Origin: Mobula hypostoma
Lineage: Eukaryota
Assembly (NCBI RefSeq): GCF_963921235.1
Contig: NC_086108.1
Coordinates: forward strand, 13,330,001 to 13,394,000
Reading direction: 5' to 3'
DNA length: 64,000 nt
In this document: positions 4,483 to 58,578 of the stretch, one piece after another
Layout: every line of letters starts with the position of its first letter
Position numbering within the stretch: position 1 is the stretch's first letter
Made by a program: the position numbers and the translations under genes
Notes under the pieces: model-generated
Databases searched by the model: none
The model's input: only the letters and a program-made list of their open reading frames with translations
What the model was told of the DNA's origin: nothing

Positions 4483-4641
<159 letters not shown>

Positions 4642-4871: not shown

Positions 4872-5110
4872 TCAGGGAGCTAGAGATAAAAGGATTGGGA
4901 GATTGGAGAGAGAAGGAGGGGGAGATAAAGAGGTGGGAGAGAGTGTGAGGGGGAGATACAGGGAGAGTAGGAAGGGAGGAAAAAGATTGAGGAAGGAGGG
5001 GAGGAGAGAAGGAGAGGAAAAGGCAAATGTGAGAGGGAGTAAGGGAGAGAGGTGAGGTGAGAATGGGAGGGAAGAGGGCACGGAAGGAGAGTGGGGAGGG
5101 GAAGAGGTAT
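4872..5110. repeat. Polypurine (GA-rich) low-complexity tract
   Basis: About 240 bp almost entirely G/A on plus. Confidence 0.85.
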
Positions 5111-5114
5111 GTGG

Positions 5115-5870
5115 AGGTGTTGCACTTTGGAAAATTAAACATAAAATGTTACTGGCAGGATCTTTTACAGTGTTGATGTACAGGGGGATCTTGTGGTCCA
5201 AGTTCATTGCTCCCTGAAAGTTGTTGATAGAGTGATAAGGAAGGCATATGAAATGCTAACCTTTGTTAGTCTCATTGAATTGAAGAGTCAGGGAATTAAG
5301 TTGCAAATTCCAGTTAGGCTGCATATGGAGTATTGCATTCATTTCTAGTTGCCCTGTTATAGGAATGAGGTGGAGGCCTTGGAGAGGGTGCAGAAGAGGC
5401 TTACCAGGGTTCTGCTTGAATTGGAGACCATTTAGTATAATAAGAGGTTGAAGAAAGAAGGGTAGTGTTATTTGGAGCAAAAAGGCTGAGGGGAGACTGT
5501 TTATATGATTATAAGAGGCACAGGGGGAGGAGACAATTAGTATATTTTTCCTCAGAGTCCAAATAAATATTTAATACTAGGGGGCATGCAATTAAGGTGA
5601 GAGTGGCAAGTACAAAGGAACTTTGGGGTTAACTTATTTTATACACAGAGAGAGGAAGATGCCTGGCACGTGCTGTCAGGGGTGGTTGTGGAGGCAAAGA
5701 TCAACAGAGGTGTTTAAGAGGCTCATATACAGGCACATGAATGTACAGAAAATGGGATATATACATTGTGTAAGTAGAAGGGGATGATTTAGTTAGGCAT
5801 CTAATTAACAGTTTAATTATTTTGCAGCACACCATGGGGCATAGGGCCAATTCCTTCATTGTACAGTGTA
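5115..5870 (+). mobile_element. Old degenerate CR1 LINE 3' fragment
   Basis: Decayed ttggagagggtgcagaagagg (LERVQ) and aggctgaggggaga (RLRGD) motifs. Confidence 0.7.
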
Positions 5871-5899
5871 GGAGCGAGAGCCAGAGCTTTAATATAATG

Positions 5900-6390
5900 A
5901 GGGGGAGAGTGGGGAGAGAGTCAGAGGGAGAGAATCAGAGGTGGGGGGAGAATTGGAGGGGGAAGAGTCATAAAGGGAAAGGTCAGAGGGAGAAGAATTA
6001 GAGAGTGGAGAGGGGGAGAAACGGGAGATGATGGGGAGACAGAGGGAGAGACAGTGCAGGAAAGAGACGGAAAGAGGAGACAAGGAGAGGCAGAGTGGAT
6101 GATGGGTGAGAAAGAGAGGGGTGAAGAGTGGGGAGAAAGGGTGAGCGTGCAGGAGAGTGGAGGGGGAAGGGGATGAGGTGAAGAAAGGGGGAAGAGAGAA
6201 AAAGGGGTGGAGAGAGGTGAGAGGAGGGAGGAAAGTAGTGGAGAGAGAATGGGGTGAGCAAATGCATGAGAAATTGGGAGAGGGGGAGGTAGAGAGGGGA
6301 TGGAGACATTGTAGTAGGGAGAGAGGTGAGGGAAATAGAGACAAGAGAGAGGATGGGGAGAGAAGATAGGGAGAGAAAGTAAGAGTAGGA
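5900..6390. repeat. Polypurine (GA-rich) low-complexity tract
   Basis: About 490 bp G/A-rich; the source of spurious Ser/Pro/Leu ORFs on minus. Confidence 0.85.
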
Positions 6391-6394
6391 AGGA

Positions 6395-9302
6395 TACTGA
6401 AAGGACAGGCAAGAAGGCTGAGGGGGCAACATTGCTCTATTGGTAGAAAATGAAATCAAATTATTAGAAAGAGATGACATAGTGTCGGAATGTGTTGTCT
6501 TATTGTGGATAGAGCTAAGGAATTGCAAGGGTAAAAAGGCCCTGATGGGAGTTCAGTTGTAAGGAACAGTAAGGACGTGGTCTACAAATTACAATGGAAG
6601 ATAGAAAATGCATGCCAAAAGGGCAATGTAATAATAGTCATGGGGAATTTCAATATGCAGGTAGATTGGGAAAATCAGGTTGGTGTGAAATTCCAAGAGG
6701 CGAAATTTCTAGAATGCCTTAGAGATGGCTTTTAAAGCAGCTCATGGTTGAGCCCACTAGGGGATCAGCTATTCTGGATTTGGTGTCCAATGAACCACAA
6801 TAGATTAGAGAGCTTAAGGCAAAAGGACCCTTAGGGTAGTGATCATAATATGATCAAATTCATCCCAAAATTTGAGAAAGGATAGCTGAAGTCAGATACA
6901 TCAATATTACAATAGAGTAAAGGGACTTACAGAAGCCTGAGAGAGGAGTTGACCTGAATTGATTGGAGGGGAACACTGGCAGGGATGACAGCATAACAGC
7001 TATGGCTGGAATTTCTGGAAGCAATTTGGAAGACATAGGATATATACATCCCAAAGAGGAAGAAGTATTCTAAAGTCAAGATGACACAACTGTTGCTAAC
7101 AAGAGAAATCAAAACCAACATAAAAGCAAAAGAGAGGACATATAATAGCGCAAAATTAGTGGGAAGTTGGGTAGCTTTTGAAAACCAACAGAAGGCAACT
7201 AAAAAGGTCATTAAGAAGGTAAAGTCGGAACAGAAAAGTAAGCTAGCCAATAATATTAAAGAAATTTTCAAAAGTTTCTGCTGATACATAAAATGTAAAA
7301 GAGAGGTGAGAGTGGATATTGGACCACTAGGAAACTGCTGGAGAGAAAGTAATGGGGGACGAGAAAATGACAGATGAACTGAATAGGTATTTTGCATCAG
7401 TCTTCACTGTGGAAGACACTAGCAGTATGGTGGAAGGTCCAGGTGTCAGGGGTCATGAAGAGTGTGAAGTTACCATAACTAGAGAGAGGTTTCTTGGGAA
7501 ACTGAAAGCTCTGGAGGTAGATAAGTCACCTGGGCCAGATGGTGTATACCCCAGGGTTCTGAAAGAGGTGGCTGAAGAAATTGTGGTGGCATTAATAATG
7601 ATCTTTCAAGAACCATTAGGTTCTGAAATAATGGAAAATTGCAAATGTCACTCCACTATTCAAGAGGGGAGAGATCAGAAGAAAGGCTAATTAGTCATCA
7701 TTTATTATTATATTGTAATTTGTCCTTTACTGTGCCTATTGTCTTCTTTATTAATTATTGTACTGTCTTGCACTATTTTGTGCACTTTATGTAGTCCCGT
7801 GTAGGTCTGAAGTCTAATGTAGCTTTGTGTTGTTTCACGTAGTCCAGTGTAGTTTTGTGTTGTTTCAGGTAGCACTATGGTCCTGGAGGAACGTTGTTTC
7901 ATTTTTTACTGTGTACTGTACCAGCAGTTATGGTTGAAATGACAATAAAAGCGACTTGACTTGACTTGACTTGACTCAGTGGTTGGGAAAATGTTGAAGT
8001 CGATTATTAAAGATGTGGTCTCAGGGTACTTGAAGGCACAAGATAAGTTCGGCTGTCTTCATGGTTTCCTCAAGGAAAATCTTGCCTGACAAATCTTTTG
8101 AAATTCTTTGAAGAAGTAACAAGCAGGATAGACTAATGAGAATAGTTGATGTTTTGTACTTGGATTTTCAGAAGGCCTTTGACAAGGTGCCACACATGAG
8201 GCTGCTTAACAAGCTACGAGCCCATGGTATTATAGGAAAAATTCCAGCGGTGGCTGATTGGCAAGAGGCAAAGAGTGGAAATAAAGGGAGCCTTTTCTGG
8301 TTGGCTGTCAGTGACTAGAGTTGTTATACAGAGTCTGTATTGGGATTGATTGAAATTAATGGCTTTGTTGCAAAGTTTTCAAACAATATGAAGATAGGTG
8401 GAGGAACAGGTAGTTTTGAAGAAGCAGAGAGATGACAGAAGGACAGAAAGATTAGGAGAATGGACAAAGAAGTGGCAGATGGGATACAGTGTCAGGGAGT
8501 GTATGGTCATGCACTTTGGTAGAAGAAATCAAACGTTGACTGTTTTGTAAATGGAGAGAAAATACAAAATACTGAGGTGCAAAGGGACTTGAGAGCCCTT
8601 GTGCAGGATTCCCTAAAGGTTAATTTTCAGGCTGAGTCTGTGGTGAGGAAGGCAAATGCAATGCTGGCATTCATTTGAAGAGGACTAGCATATAAAAACC
8701 AGGATGTAATGTTGAGACTTTATAAAGCACTGGTGAAGCCTCACTTGGAATATTGAGAGCAGTTTTGGGTCCTTTATCTTAGAAAGCACATGTTGAAACT
8801 GGAGAGGGTTCAAAGGAGGTTTGTGAAAATGATTCCAGAATTGAATGGTTTGTCATTTGAAGAGCGTTTGATGGCTCTGGGCCTGTATTCACTGGAATTC
8901 ACAAGAATGAGGCGTGACCTCATTGAAACCTATTGAATGGTGAAAGGCCTCGATAGGGTGAATGTTGTGAGTATATTTCTTTTGGTGGGCGAGTCCAAGA
9001 CCAGAGGACACAGCCTCAAAATAGAAGGGTGTCCTTTTAGAATGGAGATGGGGAGGAACTGCTTTCGCCAGAGAGTGGTGAATCTATGGAATTTGTTGCC
9101 ACAGGCAGCAACGGAGGCCTAGTCTTCATGTATATTTAAGGCAAAGTTTGATAGAATCTTAATTGGTCAAAGCATGAAGGGATACAGAGAGAAGGCAGGA
9201 GATTGGGGTTGAGAGGAAAATCAGATCAGCCATGATGAAATGGTGAAGCAGACTCAATGGACAAATGGCCTAATTCTGCTCCTGTATCTTGTTGTCTTAT
9301 GG
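6395..9302 (+). mobile_element. CR1 LINE ORF2 pseudogene (APE endonuclease, RT and 3' UTR)
   Basis: Endonuclease-region motifs (WIELRNCKGK, VMGNFN, SDHNMI), LNRYFASVFT, KSPGPDG, LDFQKAFDKVPH, and 3' UTR ending gtcttatgg. Many stops. Confidence 0.9.
7690..7976 (+). mobile_element. Non-LTR element 3' end with (GACTT)n tail nested in CR1
   Basis: gacaataaaagc followed by gacttgacttgacttgacttgact; CR1 sequence resumes at cagtggttggg. Confidence 0.7.
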
Positions 9303-9378: not shown

Positions 9379-9968
9379 TGTGGAAGAAAATTCTAAATAA
9401 AGGATTAAAATATCTGCGTTGTTAACACCCTGCACCTTGCTTTAATTAGCAGTATGCTGAGTGCTGGCCTTAGTGCACAACACAGCTGCGTAAAGAAGAT
9501 GAAAACAGTGAAGGCTATGAATTGTAGGAAGGACCTTGTGGGCTGATAATTAAAAAGTGTGTCTGGTTTCCCTTCACCTGTCAGGTACAAACATATGAAA
9601 CAAATTATACCTTTGTACTTTAATGACTTACTGGATCTAAGGATTTAATGAACCTTCTATATAGCATAAATAAAGATTCACCATTCAGCCTAGGTTCTCA
9701 GCATGCTTGCATTAATCTGCCTTAATTTCAAGGGTGTTTAACAACCTATCTCTTTTTTCTTAACATTGACTAATGTAATTGACTTTCTGTGTGCATGTTT
9801 AAGAAGGCTATGACTATTTTTTTTTGGAAACTTGACATTCACCCTGTTAGTGAGTCATTCTTCCTTTATTCATGAATAAAGGTATTCTCGAGTCACTTCG
9901 AAGTCTGTGTCAAATTTACTTGTGATCAACTTTTATTGAACTTCATTAGCAAATAATTTCCCCTAATA
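9379..9968 (+). mobile_element. Putative 5' LTR of the ERV (5' boundary approximate)
   Basis: Begins TGTGGAAGAAAATT and ends AATTTCCCCTAATA (imperfect inverted termini, terminal CA read as TA). AATAAA at 9875-9880. Ends 3 nt before the PBS. Confidence 0.6.
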
Positions 9969-9971
9969 ATT

Positions 9972-9989
9972 TGTCGCTCAACATGAGGC
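9972..9989 (+). promoter_or_regulatory. Primer binding site, tRNA-Lys(CUU)-like
   Basis: TGTCGCTCAACATGAGGC vs the Lys1,2 PBS TGGCGCCCAACGTGGGGC: 14/18 identical, three of four mismatches are transitions, and the next TC also matches. Confidence 0.7.
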
Positions 9990-10378
9990 TCCTTTCAAAT
10001 GGGGCCCAACAAACCATTACACTGTGAGTTTAAGAAGTGAGATCAGTGAACAAGACCAGTAGACGAGGAAATCACGGGGAATGTTTGACTGTGAGCGACT
10101 GAGAGTCTCCGGAGGGGTGTGGGACAAGACCAGTAGGGTAAGACCATTGCAGGTGAGGGGCCCACCCGGCCAGTGTCATCCCTGAGCTCCGGGAGAGTAA
10201 CAAGACAGTAGATGGAAGACAGGTCCAAGACCCACAGCCTACTGAGTAGTCAAATTAAGGACAACAGGTACTTCAAATACTGAGATAAATTCTGGCCATA
10301 CAAGGGTAAGGGAATTGTAGTGTGATTGAAAACTAACTAAATTTGATTACAGATTGATGTTAAACAAACAAGTAAGAA

Positions 10379-10840
10379 ATGGGTAGTAATGAAAGCAAAC
10401 GTGCAATAGGCTCCACTACTATACCGAAGAGGAGAGACAAAAGCAAGGCCTGCTGATCCACCGATCAAGGCTCCGATGAATAAACATACTGAGAAAAAGG
10501 TAAAGCAGTATAAGAAGACGAAGCAACATCTAAGTATGGCTGGAAACTGGGGATAGCAGGTAGGTAATGAATTTTTCTAGTGATTTATACGCATGGAGCC
10601 AGAGAGACTGGCCCTATGGAAGAACTTCCAATTTAAAGAAAATTCCTTACTGGAAAGGTGAGACAAAAGGAGGGGATGTGGACCCAAACTGGGATTTAGA
10701 ATACATGATGTTGTGTTTTAATACATGGGAAGAAGAGGCAAAAAGTTACCAGCCACCAAAACCTAAACCTAAGATGGAGGAAAAAGTACAAAAATACACC
10801 CTTCTCCTCTTTCCTCCCCCTTTGGGACTCTATCCTAAAT
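10379..10840 (+). pseudogene. gag: ERV gag N-terminal (matrix) remnant
   Basis: Starts MGSNESK (MGxxxS myristoylation pattern). Downstream frames give WPYGRTS (WPxxGTF-like), CFNTWEEEA and a Pro-rich PPPLGLYP segment. Stops and frameshifts present. Confidence 0.65.
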
Positions 10841-10869
10841 CTGAGATGATGGGCTGCCAGAAAATCTTA

Positions 10870-11008
10870 TTAGACCATAAGATATCGGAGCAGAATTAGG
10901 CCATTTGGCCCATCGAGTCTGCTCCACCATTTCATCATGGCTGAACCAATTTTCCTCTTAGCCCCAATCACCTGCCTTCTTCCCGTTTCCCTTCATGTCC
11001 TGACCAAT
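10870..11008 (-). mobile_element. CR1 3' UTR tail at the ERV gag/pol deletion junction
   Basis: Reverse complement of the CR1 3' end (agaccataagatatcggagcagaattaggcc). Confidence 0.8.
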
Positions 11009-11419
11009 CACGGCTACTTTCTAGTTTCCTGGTGCTGATGAAGGATACAAGAAAAAAAAAGCCAAGGCTCTTGACGGAGAGCATTATAAGATGTGCTTTA
11101 AAGGCCAAATATTTTCTTAGCCCTGAAGGGGGTAACTGCCGAAATACAGCCATACCCTCCTCAGATGAGCTACCTCCTGGAAGGAGACCACTCCAAACCC
11201 AGTGTATCCCTGGGAATAAAGCCCCCCCCCCGCCCACCTCTAAGCCTAAACATCTAGCTCCGACGGTGAAACGGTTAAAAGAGCAATTTCAAGGCACCCT
11301 TCTGACTGGCGTAACCTAATTTGGTCCCTACACTGGAGTGATAATAACAAATCCTCTTAAAATTCTTGCTTTTAGGATCCCTTGTAACCCCACCCACTTC
11401 TCCATAGTGTGACCTTCCC

Positions 11420-14180
11420 CCTGAAAGCAGTGGACCCGTCCTTGTGGGCATTGCACAAGGATCACACAGGTCCAGTTGCCTCTGCGGCGCCCCATCCCAC
11501 CGAGCCACACTTAAAAACACATTATCAAGACTCTTGTACGGCCAGGAGTGCTACGCATGATGCAAAGCCTTGCAATACACCACATTGCCGATCCTTAAAC
11601 CGGGCAAGCTGGACTAATGGCCGTTTGTGCAAGATTTATGGGCTAGCAACCAGACAGTATGGCCCATTTTCCAGGTTGTACAGGACACAACTGTTACTTC
11701 GGCTTCTGTACCATCGGAGTATCGATGGTATATGGTTACTGACCTCTGCGCTACCTTCTCAGTCCCACCGCATGAACACAGGCAGTACCTGTTCACCTTT
11801 ACGTATAATAGACAACAATATACCTGGACAAGGTTGTCTCAGGGCTATACTGAAAGCCCAGCCGTATATGGAGAAGCGGTAGGAGACGATCTGAACACAT
11901 TACTGTTGCCAGGCACTAGCATGATTTTGCACTATGCTGATCTGCAGCTGGCCTCCAAGTCATTGGCGGACTGCCAGGAAGATTCTGCAACGCTGTTAAA
12001 CTACCTGACAGCCCATGGACAACGAGCCTCATTATCTAAGTTACAATTCTGCCTAACACCTGGCACCTATTTGGGCTATGTTCTGCAGCAAGGCACTAGC
12101 CACAAGGCACTGATGACACAACAATTGTCGGCCGTATCTCAGGTAATGATGAGTTTGAGTACAGAAAGGAAATTAAGAACCTGGTGGCATGGTGCGAAGA
12201 CAATAACCTATCCCTCAACGTCAGCAAGACGAAGGAATTGGTTGTTGACTTCAGAAGGAGTAGCGGACCGCACGACCCAATTTACATCGGTGGTGCGCAA
12301 ACGGAACAGGTCAAAAGCTTTAAGTTCCTTGGGGTCAATATCACAAATGACCTGACTTGGTCCAACCAAGCAGAGTTCACTGCCACGAAAGTCCAACAGC
12401 GCCTTTACTTCCTAAGAAAACTAAAGAAATTTGGCCTGTCCCCCAAAACTCTAATTTTTATAGATGCACCGTAGAAAGCATTCTTCTAGGGTGCATCACA
12501 ACCTGGTATGGAAGTTGTCCTGTCCAAGACCGGAAGAAGCTGCAGGAGATCGTGAACACGGCACAGCACATCACACAAACCAATCTTCCATCCTTGGACT
12601 CACTTTATACCGCACGCTGTCGGAGCAGTGCTGCCAGGATAATCAAGGACACGACCCTCTCAGCCAACACATTTTTCGTCCCTCTTCCCTCCAGGAGAAG
12701 GCTCGGGAGCTTGAAGACTCATACGGCCGGATTTGGGAACAGCTTCTTTCCAACTGTGATAAGACTGCTGAACGGATCCCGACCCGGATCTGGGCTGTAC
12801 CCTCCAAATATCCGGACCCAAATCTCGTTTTTTTTGCACTACCTTAATCTCCATTTTTCTAATTTTTCTATTTATGATTTATAATTTAAATTTTTAATAT
12901 TTACTATCGATTTGTAATCCAGGGAGCAGGAAGCGCAGAATCAAATATCGCTATAATGATTGTACGTTCTAGTATCAATTGTTTAGCGACAATAAAGTGT
13001 AGGAGACTTGGCCCTGAATGCGTGTCTGCCACCTCCGAGACTAGAATTTTTTTTTTAAAAAAGGTACTTGCATTCTTTGTAATGACAGATTACTGTCGAC
13101 ACTGGGTTGCTGAAGACAGAACCCATGATGCTGTGCTATGGACAGCCATACTACAGGACGCACCGTCTCAAGTTAAGTGGAGCCCTGAAATGGAATCGCC
13201 ATATGAGGCTCTGGAGAAGGAATGCTCCACACACCAGCCTTGGGCATTTCTGACTACTGTAGATCCTTCCAGTTATATACTAACGAAAAGGAGGGATTTG
13301 GACTCAGGAACACGGTGGTTTGACAAGGCCGGTGGCATATTACTCCACTCAATGGTGCGCGACCTGTCTGACTGCCGACGAGCTGTAGCGGCGACAGCAC
13401 TGATGGTCGGAAAGGCAACGCCTATAATATTGCAGCATTCCTGCAGAGTATTGATTCCTCATTCAACGGCTACACAACACTTCACAGCAGCAAGGCAAAC
13501 AGTACATATCTAATTCCTTCTATCGTGTAGACCTAATGATTTTGAGACACTGCCTGGATATGCTTCGAGCTGTTGTAAGGTTCCTTCCCTTCAGGGGCAT
13601 CAGCGCAAGCAGCGGAGCCATTTGCACTCAATGGCGCTTGCATCTTGGCCGAGAGTAAAACTGAATACCTACACCGAATCAAGAAATGGGTTTGCGGTAG
13701 CACGTGATTTCGGTGACCCACGGCAACATTGGGGATTCATTACTTCCGCTGGTAAATGGCATGCCCAGTTTATTAGGAATTTGCCACAGGCTGTTTTATT
13801 GCCACAGCAGATTGCTGTAATTAAATGTGAAGCCCATACGCGTAGCTCTGACCCGTGGCACAAGGTAATCCTGCAGCCGCTATATTTGCCGTCCTTTCCA
13901 GCAGATATACTTACAGCATGTCTGACAATGAATTTACAGCGGTCTACACCTGGACTCCTACCATAGAGTCCTTACTGGCTGAGCAGCAGGTGGCCAGTGC
14001 AGAGGCACAGCCGCTTTGGAAAAATAAACGCTGGACCCGTGATGCTGGTGAATTATGGTCACACCCTGGTCACCGCAGACTTCTCTATGCTCTTGTTAGG
14101 CTAGGAAAAGGATGAGTGACACACCAAATTGGGCAGCAGTGCTTTGCACCAGGGCTAACAGTAGCAGCAGAACAGTTATT
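11420..14180 (+). pseudogene. pol: ERV pol (RT, connection, RNase H, integrase N-terminus), split by a LINE insertion
   Basis: ORFs 11409.., 11627.., 12956.., 13622.., 13855.. and 14116.. carry successive Pol motifs. LQQGT (to 12097) rejoins RRLGPE (from 13001) across the insertion. Confidence 0.88.
12100..12999 (+). mobile_element. Rex1/Babar-like LINE, 5'-truncated, inserted in ERV pol
   Basis: WCEDNNLSLNVSKTKELVVDFRR, FKFLGV, QQRLYFLRKLKK, FYRCTVESIL, NSFFP; ends gacaataaagtg; TAG on both sides (12097-12099 and 13000-13002). Confidence 0.88.
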
Positions 14181-14187
14181 CAAACTT

Positions 14188-14277
14188 GAGAAAATCTGCA
14201 GATGCTGGAAATGGTGCAGGACCTCAGCGGGCCAGGCAGCATCTATGGAAGAGAGTAAAGAGTTGGCGTTTCGGGCC
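14188..14277 (-). mobile_element. Penelope-like terminal-repeat fragment with half a hammerhead motif
   Basis: ctgcagatgctggaaat...ggcagcatctatgga...gcgtttcgggcc matches the reverse complement of the type of tail at 48770-48853. Confidence 0.65.
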
Positions 14278-15121
14278 AAAAAGTTCTATTTTAACTTCAT
14301 TAATCCACAGGACTTGCTTCCAAAATGCATCAGGCTTGTTTAGATATTCCTTTGAACCTTTTGAATAGAACTTTTTGGCCACAATGAGCAAAGGTATATT
14401 TGGAGAAAACAAGGTGCAGAATTTCATAAAAAGAACTCCTCTCCAACTGTTAAGCACAGGAGTGGATCGATCATGCTTTGGGCTTGTGTTGCAGCCAGTG
14501 GCACAGGGAATATTTCACTGGTAGAGGGAAGAATTAATTCAATTAAATGCCAGCAAATTCTGGAAGCAAACATCACACCGTCTGTAAAAAAGCTGAAGAT
14601 GAAAAGAGGATGACTTCTACAACAAGATAATGAAAACACCTCAAAATCCACAAGCTGAGGTGCAAGCTGAAGATTTCGCCATGGCCCTCACAGTCCCCTG
14701 ACCTAAACATCATCGAAAATCTGTGGATAGAACTCAGAAGAGCATTGCATGCAAGACAGACCAAGAATCTCACAGAACTAGAAGCCTTTTACAAGGAAAA
14801 ATGGGGGAAAATCCCCCAAACAAGAATTGAAAGATTCTTAACTGGATACAAAAAGCGTTTACAAGCTGTGATAGTTGTCAAAAGGGGTGTTACTAAGTAC
14901 TACCATGCAGGGTGCCCAAACTTTTGCTCCGGGCCCTTTTTCCTTTTTGTTATTTTGGAACTGTAAAAGATGGAAATAAAAAGTTTTCTTGCTTAAAATA
15001 TTAAAGAAATGTGTCATCTTTAACTTTATGCCTTTTAGAAATCAGTTCATCTTTTACTCGCTTAGCTATTCACAGTAACAGAAATTGTGACCGGGGGTGC
15101 CCAAACTTTTGCATGCCACTG
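14274..15121 (+). mobile_element. Tc1-family DNA transposon, 3' half with IR/DR-type right end
   Basis: QQDN, WPSQSPDLNIIENLW and KRLQAVI..VTKY. Repeat gggtgcccaaacttttgc at 14910 and 15095. Terminates CACTG followed by TA (15122-15123). Confidence 0.9.
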
Positions 15122-32200: not shown

Positions 32201-32403
32201 TAGTTTCTTATGTTGTACTGTTGTACCATATTCTATGACTTTAGGAAGAGCCAAACACTGGAACCAACAAGAACAAAAACACTTAATTCAACGATTCATT
32301 ACATGCAGATCAGGATCTCATCACAGAGATAATGTTGTGTTGACATCACCTATCTCAACATCATTGCGCAATTAACAGAGAGAGAGAGTGAAGCATTACT
32401 CAC

Positions 32404-32555
32404 TGTCCATCCCCCATTATCAGTCACCATGTCGCAGAAGACCTGAAGGTTTTGCTGTGGCTTTCCATTGATATAGATATCATAAATGCCACTGATTGTG
32501 TCTCCATTGAGTAGGTGCTGAGTACAGTCCCAGGGGTAAGGATAGAGACGGCTTG
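32404..32555 (-). CDS. TNR: Tenascin-R coding exon (start of fibrinogen-like domain), 152 bp, phase 1-0
   Basis: ttttgtatttcag|CA AGC CGT...TGG ACA|gtgagt, giving (A)[50 protein letters not shown]. FReD motifs PxDC and VxCDMxTDxGGW. Confidence 0.95.
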
Positions 32556-56293: not shown

Positions 56294-58578
56294 TGCTGTG
56301 TTTGTTCCTGAGGGATTGTGCAGAGCACACCAGGATGCCAGTATGCAGAATACTCAACTGAACTTTATTGACAACTCTGCTTCTACCGTACGTGAACTAC
56401 TCCCAGGTGGGAATGGCTGAGAGGGATAGTAAGAACATATTAACTACCACAGCATCTCCCCTTCTTGAAAAAAAGATAGGCATCACCATAGAACTTCATT
56501 GAAATTATAGTCACTGAAATCGCACGATTCAGTTCACTTCACCCATAGAGCGTAACTTATGCTCCTTATGTAAACATAACAAGAGATTGCCAACATTATA
56601 TTAACAACAGTCTCGTTTTGTGAAATGATTTCAACATTAGAACTCTTTTTAAAAAAAACACTAAATCTAATGGGGGTTAGGGTAAACAATCTGACACTCC
56701 AACAAAGGTTTATTCTGCCTCTTTAGTCATTTGCCCAAATCTATTATCAGAATCAGATTTATTATCACCAGCATGTGAGGTGAAATTTGTTAACTTAGCA
56801 GCAGCAGTTCAATGTAATACATAATATAGAAAAAAAACAAAGGAAATAAAAATGATAATAATTAATAAATAAATAAATAAATCACAGTACACATATATTG
56901 AATAGGTTTTAAAAAAAGAAATACTGTATATTAAAAAAGCGAGGTAGTGTCGAGGGTTCAATGTCGTAGGTTGTTCCATATTCTGAACTCCTGCCAGCTG
57001 GTCTGAATCTGGTTGCACTCCCTCTAAGGATAGTTGGTGGCCCAAGAATTTCACCTCCAACTCTACAAAGTCCTGTTTCTTTTTGTTCAGGGTGAATCCA
57101 GCCTGTTTCAGTTCCTCCAAGGTAGTTTCCTCTCTTTTTTTATGTTCCTCACCTGAGCCTCCGAAGATGAGTATATCATCCATGTGGCAGACTACTCCTT
57201 CTATAACCATATAAATTTTGTCCCTCCAAAATTTGGTTCATCCTCATCTGAAAGAGTTCATGGGCTGATAGATGCCAAAAGGGAGACTCTTGAAGGCATA
57301 GCATCCATATGGTGTGATAAATGTTGTGAGCTACTGTGACTCAGGAAATAAATTGATCTGCCAGAACTCTGAGTTTGCATCTAGTTTGGTGAAGAACTTT
57401 GCTCCACCTAGCATACCCAATGTGTGCTTAACAGAGGGCAGAATAAATTTCTCTTGCCTCACTGCATTATTCAACTTTGTCAGATCTACTCAGATACTCA
57501 CTGTGCCATCTGGCTGGGGAACGGGAACAATGCCCTCATACCAGTCAGTAGGTTCATTCACTCTAGTTATGATGTCAAGTGCTTCCATTCTCTCAAGTTC
57601 AGCTTTGATTTTGTTCATCAATGGTAGATGCCTCACTGTGGTCAGAGAGTAGGGTGTCACTCCTGATCTCAGTTGAGTAAGGTACTCTTCTTTCAGCACC
57701 CCCAGGCCTGTGAACAACTCTGGGTACTTCTCGTGCTCCTGAACATTGTTTAGTGAATCCACCTTTGAAATGTGGTCCAGCTTCTTGATGGCAAGTTGCC
57801 CCATAGTGGTGAGAAGAGATTCTCAACAACATAGACATCCTCTTTTAAATGTTTCTCATTTTTATGGATGGAAGCAGTAAACATTCTATCACACTGAGCT
57901 AATGTTCCCCTGGCCTCATGAGAACTTTCTTTGTTGGGTTCAGCATAACGTCTGCTTCCTTCACCAGTTTTGTGAACAGACGTTCGGGAATGGCTGTGAC
58001 AACTGCCCCAGTGTCCATTTTGATCATCACTGCCTTGTTTAGCAACTGAACCACAGTACATCAGTCTTGTTGATCTGAATCTAGAGACCCAAGGAGAGCT
58101 CACTCTTCGTCTGAATCATGGTCTTCATTGATCTCCTGAAGAACTGTTGTTTGAGTGACACTGGCTTTTACAACGGCCAACTCTATTGCACTGGTGGTAT
58201 TTCACATCTTTTGCTAGACAGGGCTCTGTCGTGTGGAAAAGAGACTTGCTGCATCTCCTGCAGTTGGACAATTTACCTGCTTTTTGATTCGCTTGCTTGT
58301 TTTGTTTGAGATGAGCCCTTTCTGTAGTCTTTGACTGCACCTTGTTTGTCCCCTTCTTTTTGTACAGCTTCTAGTTTCACCTCTGCAACATTTTTGTGCC
58401 TGAGTTCTGCCTGTTGCTGATGAACATTCTCACTCTGCCTGACCTTAGTAATAGTTTTTTCTAGTGTGAGATCTGCCTACAACTGAAGTCTCTCTGACAA
58501 TTTGGTGTCTAGTAGTCTGACAACAATGTTGTCTCTAATGAAATCATCTCTCAGATTTCCATATGCTCAGTTGTCTGA
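56294..58578 (-). mobile_element. Gypsy relic (second family): gag, protease, RT, PPT and 161-bp 3' LTR (56294-56454)
   Basis: RDNIVV..LSERLQL..LTLEK, CxxC knuckles, DTGAVVT, LDANSEFWQ, CHMDDILIFG; purine tract aagaaggggaga; LTR TGCTGTG...CACAGCA. Confidence 0.85.

Follow-up and report, generated by a model that had tools for sequence, protein, structure and literature searches.

Between positions 9379 and about 14190 of the 64-kb stretch of contig NC_086108.1 analyzed here (hereafter the window) lies a dead class I (epsilon-like) provirus, internally deleted and truncated at its 3′ end. It sits antisense within a 28-kb intron of the tenascin-R gene, between two exons of the fibrinogen domain; a first-pass annotation made from the letters alone had placed it there, and the flanking minus-strand exons were indeed located (Table 1), with two further tenascin-R exons (fibronectin type III) on the same strand at about 37.9 and 34.4 kb. 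The exon near 4.5 kb matches tenascin-R structures at 3.5e-16 versus 1e-5 for tenascin-C, and the one near 32.5 kb shares 96% identity with Hemitrygon tenascin-R, 94% with that of Pristis and 78–86% with those of sharks, a skate and Narcine (of 19 candidates, 13 passed). Judging from these exon identities, the host is likely a ray, in keeping with the cartilaginous fish that the annotation had guessed. Its span for the element, 9379–14180, does contain the provirus, with a right end that falls slightly short, as homology to other copies extends to about 14190. Our overall reading, to which we give a probability of roughly 0.93, is that of an inert provirus from a class I, epsilon-like family present in multiple copies, antisense in a tenascin-R intron, whose Pol carries a predicted CNPase-type domain.

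All genome searches were run on the host's own 3.48-Gb genome. With the long terminal repeat (LTR) of the window copy as query, 159 candidates were obtained and the best 40 scored; all 40 match, i.e., the window copy and 39 others, in pieces 70–86% identical that nearly all start at query base 1–4 and end sharply. The LTR search that the first-pass annotation had suggested was thus rewarding, with the repeat found at at least 39 other loci, some of them fuller proviruses with env. The search with the reverse transcriptase (RT) region gave 51 candidates and that with the env region 74, the best 40 being scored in each case (51 matching pieces for env). Twenty loci (L021–L040) were fetched, 19 by their RT matches and one by an LTR pair.

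Three copies (L026, L031 and L038) retain two LTRs and span 7.1–8.3 kb. Between its LTRs, L026 has gag, RT, RNase H, integrase and env, with Pfam matches to RVT_1 (4e-9), RNase_H (1e-4), rve (3e-7), MLVIN_C (3e-5) and, for env, TLV_coat (6e-4, below the curated cut-off). Env motifs are also found: CWVC in L005 and L031, the CX6CC-type CAVIRQECC in L031 and CAVIGQECC in L005, and the immunosuppressive-type LQNRMALD in L026. The protease motif DSGA occurs at three loci (L027, L034 and L046), a CCHC-like nucleocapsid in L027, and a purine tract ahead of the 3′ LTR in L026, L031 and L005. The family order, assembled across natural copies, is therefore LTR, primer-binding site (PBS), gag, pro, pol, env, polypurine tract and LTR. 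An in-frame TAG or TAA at the gag-pol junction, present in three of the seven distinct copies (L046, L047 and L048) and mutated in the others, fits read-through. Every examined copy is broken, and the RT catalytic motif is retained at half of the 20 fetched loci.

A 5-bp target duplication with at most one mismatch flanks 5 of the 15 both-ended LTRs (L002, L003, L012, L013 and L018); those without one are mostly proviral ends or long-form LTRs, and the duplication of L011 is exact if read from the long-form start. In retroviruses such duplications measure 4–6 bp, a length of 5 bp being known from a gammaretrovirus (PMC3790719). The long-form LTR has about 190 bp extra at its 5′ side, with its own TGTGG (L004, L006, L007, L010/L038, L011, L015 and L017), and contains a unit of about 42 bp that is tandemly expanded ahead of the 3′ LTR of L038. 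At about 4900–6900, this same copy is interrupted by a retroelement of a different type with a long RT-like open frame, which we take to be Penelope-like. At least six family pieces are clustered in 600 kb of one contig (G000:C45, about 88.28–88.85 Mb).

Two primer tRNAs are used within this one LTR family: Lys(CTT) at four loci (the window, L024, L026 and L031, L026 being slightly beyond the mismatch threshold) and Ser(GCT) at five (L021, L030, L035, L037 and L038, with L030 and L037 read by eye). The host tRNA pattern including the complement of CCA has no match in the genome, which is what eukaryotic tRNA genes would lead one to expect; once the complement was dropped, there were 17 matches for Lys and 14 for Ser, four of which were checked with ARAGORN. 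As for age, the Kimura two-parameter (K2P) distance between paired LTRs is 0.161 in L026, 0.162 in L031 and 0.153 in L038 (15–16% diverged), which would make about 350 Myr at the shark rate assumed in PMC4422223 and about 35 Myr at the mammalian rate quoted there, so these values are to be read as a relative age only.

In the window copy (Table 1), the LTR begins with TGTGG, its right edge being set where the other copies end in TAACA; it carries a TATA-like element at 9658 and AATAAA at 9875, and measures 590 bp versus 629–677 bp in 15 measured copies. The Lys-like PBS reported by the first-pass annotation pairs with the host's own tRNA-Lys(CTT), and the MGSNESK start is where gag begins. Within the leader, a short motif starting with ACAAGAC is repeated about four times (10045–10240) and is possibly part of a packaging signal. 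The Pol pieces follow one another in retroviral order up to the right end, as had been claimed, and KLQFC and IAVIKCEAH (given as IAVIKCxAH) can be read in them; the motif announced as QYTWTRLPQG is there too, spelled QYTWTRLSQG.

Table 1. Features of the provirus and of its host gene in the window.
Feature	Position	Strand	Remarks
5′ LTR, short form	9379..9968	+	about 80 bp deleted internally near 9753; from genome copies
PBS, tRNA-Lys(CTT)	9972..9989	+	3 nt past the LTR; 4 mismatches in 18 to the host tRNA 3′ end
Leader	9990..10378	+	66–79% identity to copies
gag 5′ part (matrix region)	10379..10872	+	MGSNESK start, stops and frameshifts; from frames and copy alignment
3′ tail of a long interspersed nuclear element (LINE)	10873..11008	-	no target duplication; 85% to window 9162–9297
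CNPase-like 2H phosphoesterase remnant	11009..11400	+	between protease and RT; from DNA identity to copies
RT, 5′ part	11421..12099	+	catalytic motif degenerate; about 70 bp lost near 11520 relative to L026
LINE, 5′-truncated	12100..12999	+	splits RT; Pfam RVT_1 and ALKBH8_N; 3-bp TAG duplication
RT thumb/connection and RNase H	13000..13860	+	frameshifted; about 150 bp lost near 13500 relative to L026 and L023
Integrase N-terminus	13972..14190	+	cut within the zinc-finger region
Tenascin-R fibrinogen-domain exon, downstream of the intron	4483..4584	-	tenascin-R structure match
Tenascin-R fibrinogen-domain exon, upstream of the intron	32401..32550	-	sequence matches

The decay of this copy can be followed by comparison with its relatives. 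Compared with L027, some 1.75 kb is deleted, with loss of the capsid, the nucleocapsid, the protease and the first part of the CNPase-like domain. At this point sits the 136-bp reversed LINE tail, which we take to be of the CR1 type; the small insertion of the first-pass annotation is thus real, with a left bound corrected from 10870 to 10873. RT is interrupted by a 900-bp insertion, as had been proposed, since in L026 the bases equivalent to 12099 and 13000 are contiguous and TAG is duplicated in the window. The inserted element, presumably a Rex1/Babar LINE, is 92–94% identical to 39 other copies (4923 candidates, best 40 scored), so that its wave would have about half the age of the two-LTR proviruses. 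Homology stops within the integrase zinc finger, where other repeats start, with a Tc1/mariner-like transposase remnant (DDE_3, 3e-6) at 14280–14960, just beyond the truncated end. The integrase core, env and the 3′ LTR are absent within the window, where 3′ segments of L026 and L031, used as queries for blastn and tblastx, recovered only the LTR and unrelated repeats; the list of lost parts drawn up earlier (capsid, nucleocapsid, protease, most of integrase, env and 3′ LTR) is right for this copy.

One could imagine that the window copy was already deleted and non-autonomous when it integrated, having been spread in trans by helper viruses; indeed, many copies are internally deleted, some of them at similar sites near the RT start (L022 and L023). 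Yet, neither the 10872/11009 junction with its LINE tail nor the 14190 end was seen in the 20 compared loci, which argues for damage after integration and leaves a defective founder rather unlikely.

The class of the family was approached through its RT. The natural frame 11618–12097 matches RVT_1 (2.7e-12) and, among solved structures, the RT of murine leukemia virus (MLV; 3e-20), that of foamy virus (3e-7) and chain 7sr6 (7e-3). Trees were built from natural single-frame pieces and database proteins. In the larger one (96 rows, six named proteins being excluded for short RT cover), the window RT groups with six copies (SH-aLRT 99), then with the sawshark (84), and next with endogenous retroviruses (ERVs) of Scomber, Gymnodraco, Larimichthys and Lissotriton (94). 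The 37-row tree gives 100/100 for the family's own copies, 94/75 for the sawshark as sister and 88/94 for the clade with teleost and newt ERVs. With the approximately unbiased (AU) test, a grouping of the family and sawshark with skate and catshark was rejected (p 0.003); a second, separate elasmobranch ERV lineage is made of P0088 from Leucoraja, which likewise carries the insert described below, and P0236 and P0197 from Scyliorhinus. Membership in class I is supported by the linked env, the MLV-type integrase C-terminus, RNase H and the RT grouping. The gamma/epsilon-type, non-Gypsy Pol recognized in the first pass agrees with the MLV match, the position among class I ERVs and the linked env.

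Positions 11009–11400, left unassigned by the first-pass annotation, turned out to be the remnant of a CNPase-like 2H domain. In the Pol of a Pristiophorus japonicus ERV (P0002), the closest database protein that covers the upstream region, protease and RT are set apart by about 190 additional residues that include two H-x-T motifs; a Pfam scan of this insert found no family, Pfam CNPase included. A profile made from 18 such proteins matches 44 of the 258 related proteins gathered. Among 47 proteins with protease and RT motifs that it does not match, 46 have the two spaced by 155–224 aa, including walleye epidermal hyperplasia virus 1 (WEHV1), whose Pol has 196 aa there and no insert. Across 25 homologues, the second histidine is invariant and the first nearly so, and the profile of these 25 sequences matches the G-RICH and CNPase structures (E 9e-4 to 4e-3). 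When the whole of P0002 was folded, the confidence score (pLDDT) of the insert was below 50 over long stretches, and a domain-only alignment was used instead. The resulting AlphaFold model of the sawshark domain (pLDDT 77) has mouse CNPase as a match in PDB (Foldseek E 1.5e-8, template-modeling (TM) score 0.75), and the ESM Atlas model of P0002 residues 105–270 has a TM of 0.78 to CNPase; the sawshark domain is therefore predicted to adopt the bilobed, CNPase-like 2H fold.

In the host genome, eight frames from 7 of the 20 loci match the domain profile at E <0.5. The DNA of the window remnant is 71–78% identical to L023, L027 and L035, of which L023 and L035 match the profile; its first histidine motif was severed by the deletion and the second is degenerate. 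Motif 1 is kept in L027 and L046, and motif 2 at 6 of 20 loci. We also considered a family without protease, based on a DTG-like motif ahead of RT, and dropped it: this motif is part of the CNPase-like domain, and the DSGA proteases lie further upstream. As to substrate, the predicted fold and the motifs suggest that 2′,3′-cyclic phosphates would be hydrolyzed, and we hold it an even bet that the domain would act on 2′,3′-cyclic-phosphate RNA ends or cyclic nucleotides. The domain resembles CNPase more closely than it does AKAP7-type enzymes, which speaks against 2′-5′ oligoadenylate (2′-5′A).

Could the family belong to the genus Epsilonretrovirus proper, with WEHV1 and walleye dermal sarcoma virus (WDSV)? 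The host is a fish, and the AlphaFold domain model also finds matches in WEHV1 and WDSV, there in the Env polyproteins, as well as in an unnamed viral protein of 1072 aa (BFVD Q9WHI8, A4GTG3 and Q2VF30). However, a clade of the family with WEHV1 was rejected (AU, p 0.003), and the match of both walleye viruses sits in Env, whereas that of the ray family is inside Pol, at a place where WEHV1 has no insert; we consider such membership very improbable. The walleye viruses carry a retroviral cyclin as an accessory gene; a Pfam scan of L026 between its LTRs turned up no accessory family, no directed search having been made. Hardly more credible, and if anything slightly less so, is co-option of the LTR or remnant, e.g., in the role of antisense promoter or enhancer for tenascin-R: the TATA-like and AATAAA elements survive, but all frames are broken, and the LTR is internally deleted and at a K2P of 0.18–0.21 from those of L026 and L038.

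One has to keep in mind several observations that pull against the reading of an inert class I family with a CNPase-type domain. The window copy has a single LTR, so that its own age is not datable from an LTR pair. Most Pfam matches of the decayed copies, env and RNase H included, are under the curated cut-offs (in L026, the RT match alone clears its own). The trees were built without WDSV, zebrafish ERV (ZFERV), SSSV (the swim bladder sarcoma virus of salmon), MLV or foamy viruses, WEHV1 being the sole named virus. The CNPase-like remnant of the window does not match the domain profile, and is assigned through its DNA identity to other copies; none of the host-genome copies examined holds both histidine motifs, and the fold was predicted on the sawshark protein, whose RT is 49–52% identical to that of the family. 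Finally, a grouping of two Gypsy RT pieces with the RT of the window was not rejected by the AU test (p 0.217), these pieces being short and long-branched, so that anatomy carries the non-Gypsy point. A Gypsy/Metaviridae LTR retrotransposon, for which the Gypsy RT pieces near 57 kb also speak, deserves next to no credence, as MLV RTs are the best structural relatives, the best trees fall among class I ERVs, and the MLV-type integrase C-terminus and gamma-type env of linked copies largely refute it. The decayed Gypsy-like RT on the minus strand of the window (about 56800–58100) served as outgroup.

Retroviruses of cartilaginous fishes are less of a novelty than the first-pass annotation implied, epsilon-like ones being already in print. 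Two papers describe epsilon-like ERVs in the elephant shark (CmiERV lineages II/III; Han 2015, PMC4422223) and ERVs of three cartilaginous fishes, dispersed over the tree (Xu et al. 2018, PMC6001957). Compared by these descriptions, they are, like the ray family, class I elements with env in a chondrichthyan genome, with old, decayed copies; they come from a different host group, no CNPase-like domain is mentioned in the text available, and the LTR-LTR distance is 0.024–0.033 in Han's two complete copies, against 0.15–0.16 in the ray. The nearest database relatives (RT 49–53%) are P0001 and P0002 of Pristiophorus japonicus, followed by the Scomber, Gymnodraco, Larimichthys and Lissotriton proteins; the order protease, CNPase-like domain, RT is common to P0002, P0156, P0157, P0190, P0253 and the ray family. 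These relatives have open frames and both histidine motifs, unlike the decayed ray copies.

For teleost epsilon-like ERVs, PMC4977317, citing Basta et al. 2009, reports CNPase or macro domains, and PMC9503650, citing Mazumder 2002, reports 2H domains in fish retroviruses and WDSV. Next to vertebrate CNPase and fish RICH (PF05881), the Pol domain is predicted to fold alike (TM 0.75) and shows two H-x-T/S motifs, of which the first stands in the same LHCT context; identity is 14–20%, and only a region the size of the catalytic domain is present. In PMC9503650, 2H domains are proposed to process cyclic RNA ends or, in the case of other viral ones, to attack 2′-5′A, and PMC7471995 counts host CNP among the inhibitors of HIV-1 assembly. 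A term search of the available text of PMC10835031, on viral phosphodiesterase capture, found retroviruses, fish and sharks unmentioned. In the literature covered, outside of which lie subscription papers and supplements, we found no CNPase-like domain in elasmobranch ERVs and no activity test reported.

The life cycle of the family would have been that of an ordinary retrovirus, with tRNA-primed reverse transcription, Gag-Pol made through read-through of the in-frame stop, and entry by a gamma-type Env followed by germline integration; most copies would later have been reduced to solo LTRs or deleted forms. In the window copy, the LINE tail would have come in with the loss of about 1.75 kb, and later the 900-bp LINE into RT; all sequence beyond the integrase zinc finger would also have been lost. 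Of the proviruses within introns, antisense ones interfere least with splicing and polyadenylation, which is likely why this one persisted. The CNPase-like domain would be cut from Gag-Pol by the viral protease and, flanked in Pol by two protease-released enzymes, would be packaged in virions. More tentatively, and with the odds somewhat against us, we picture a host-switching class I clade of rays, sharks, teleosts and newts with an active, host-derived, packaged CNPase-type enzyme that may heal cyclic-phosphate RNA ends or remove cyclic-nucleotide immune signals; its place in Pol here and in Env in the walleye viruses would mean that the domain moved or was captured more than once.

Taken alone, the window copy is an unremarkable dead provirus. 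The CNPase-like Pol domain of its family, missed by Pfam, is better studied in the unbroken relatives; were it an active enzyme, it would represent a retroviral accessory function of which we found no published test. With this family, a ray lineage joins the few retroviruses so far described from cartilaginous fishes. Its nearest relatives come from a sawshark, from teleosts and from a newt, not from skate or catshark, in line with frequent host switching.

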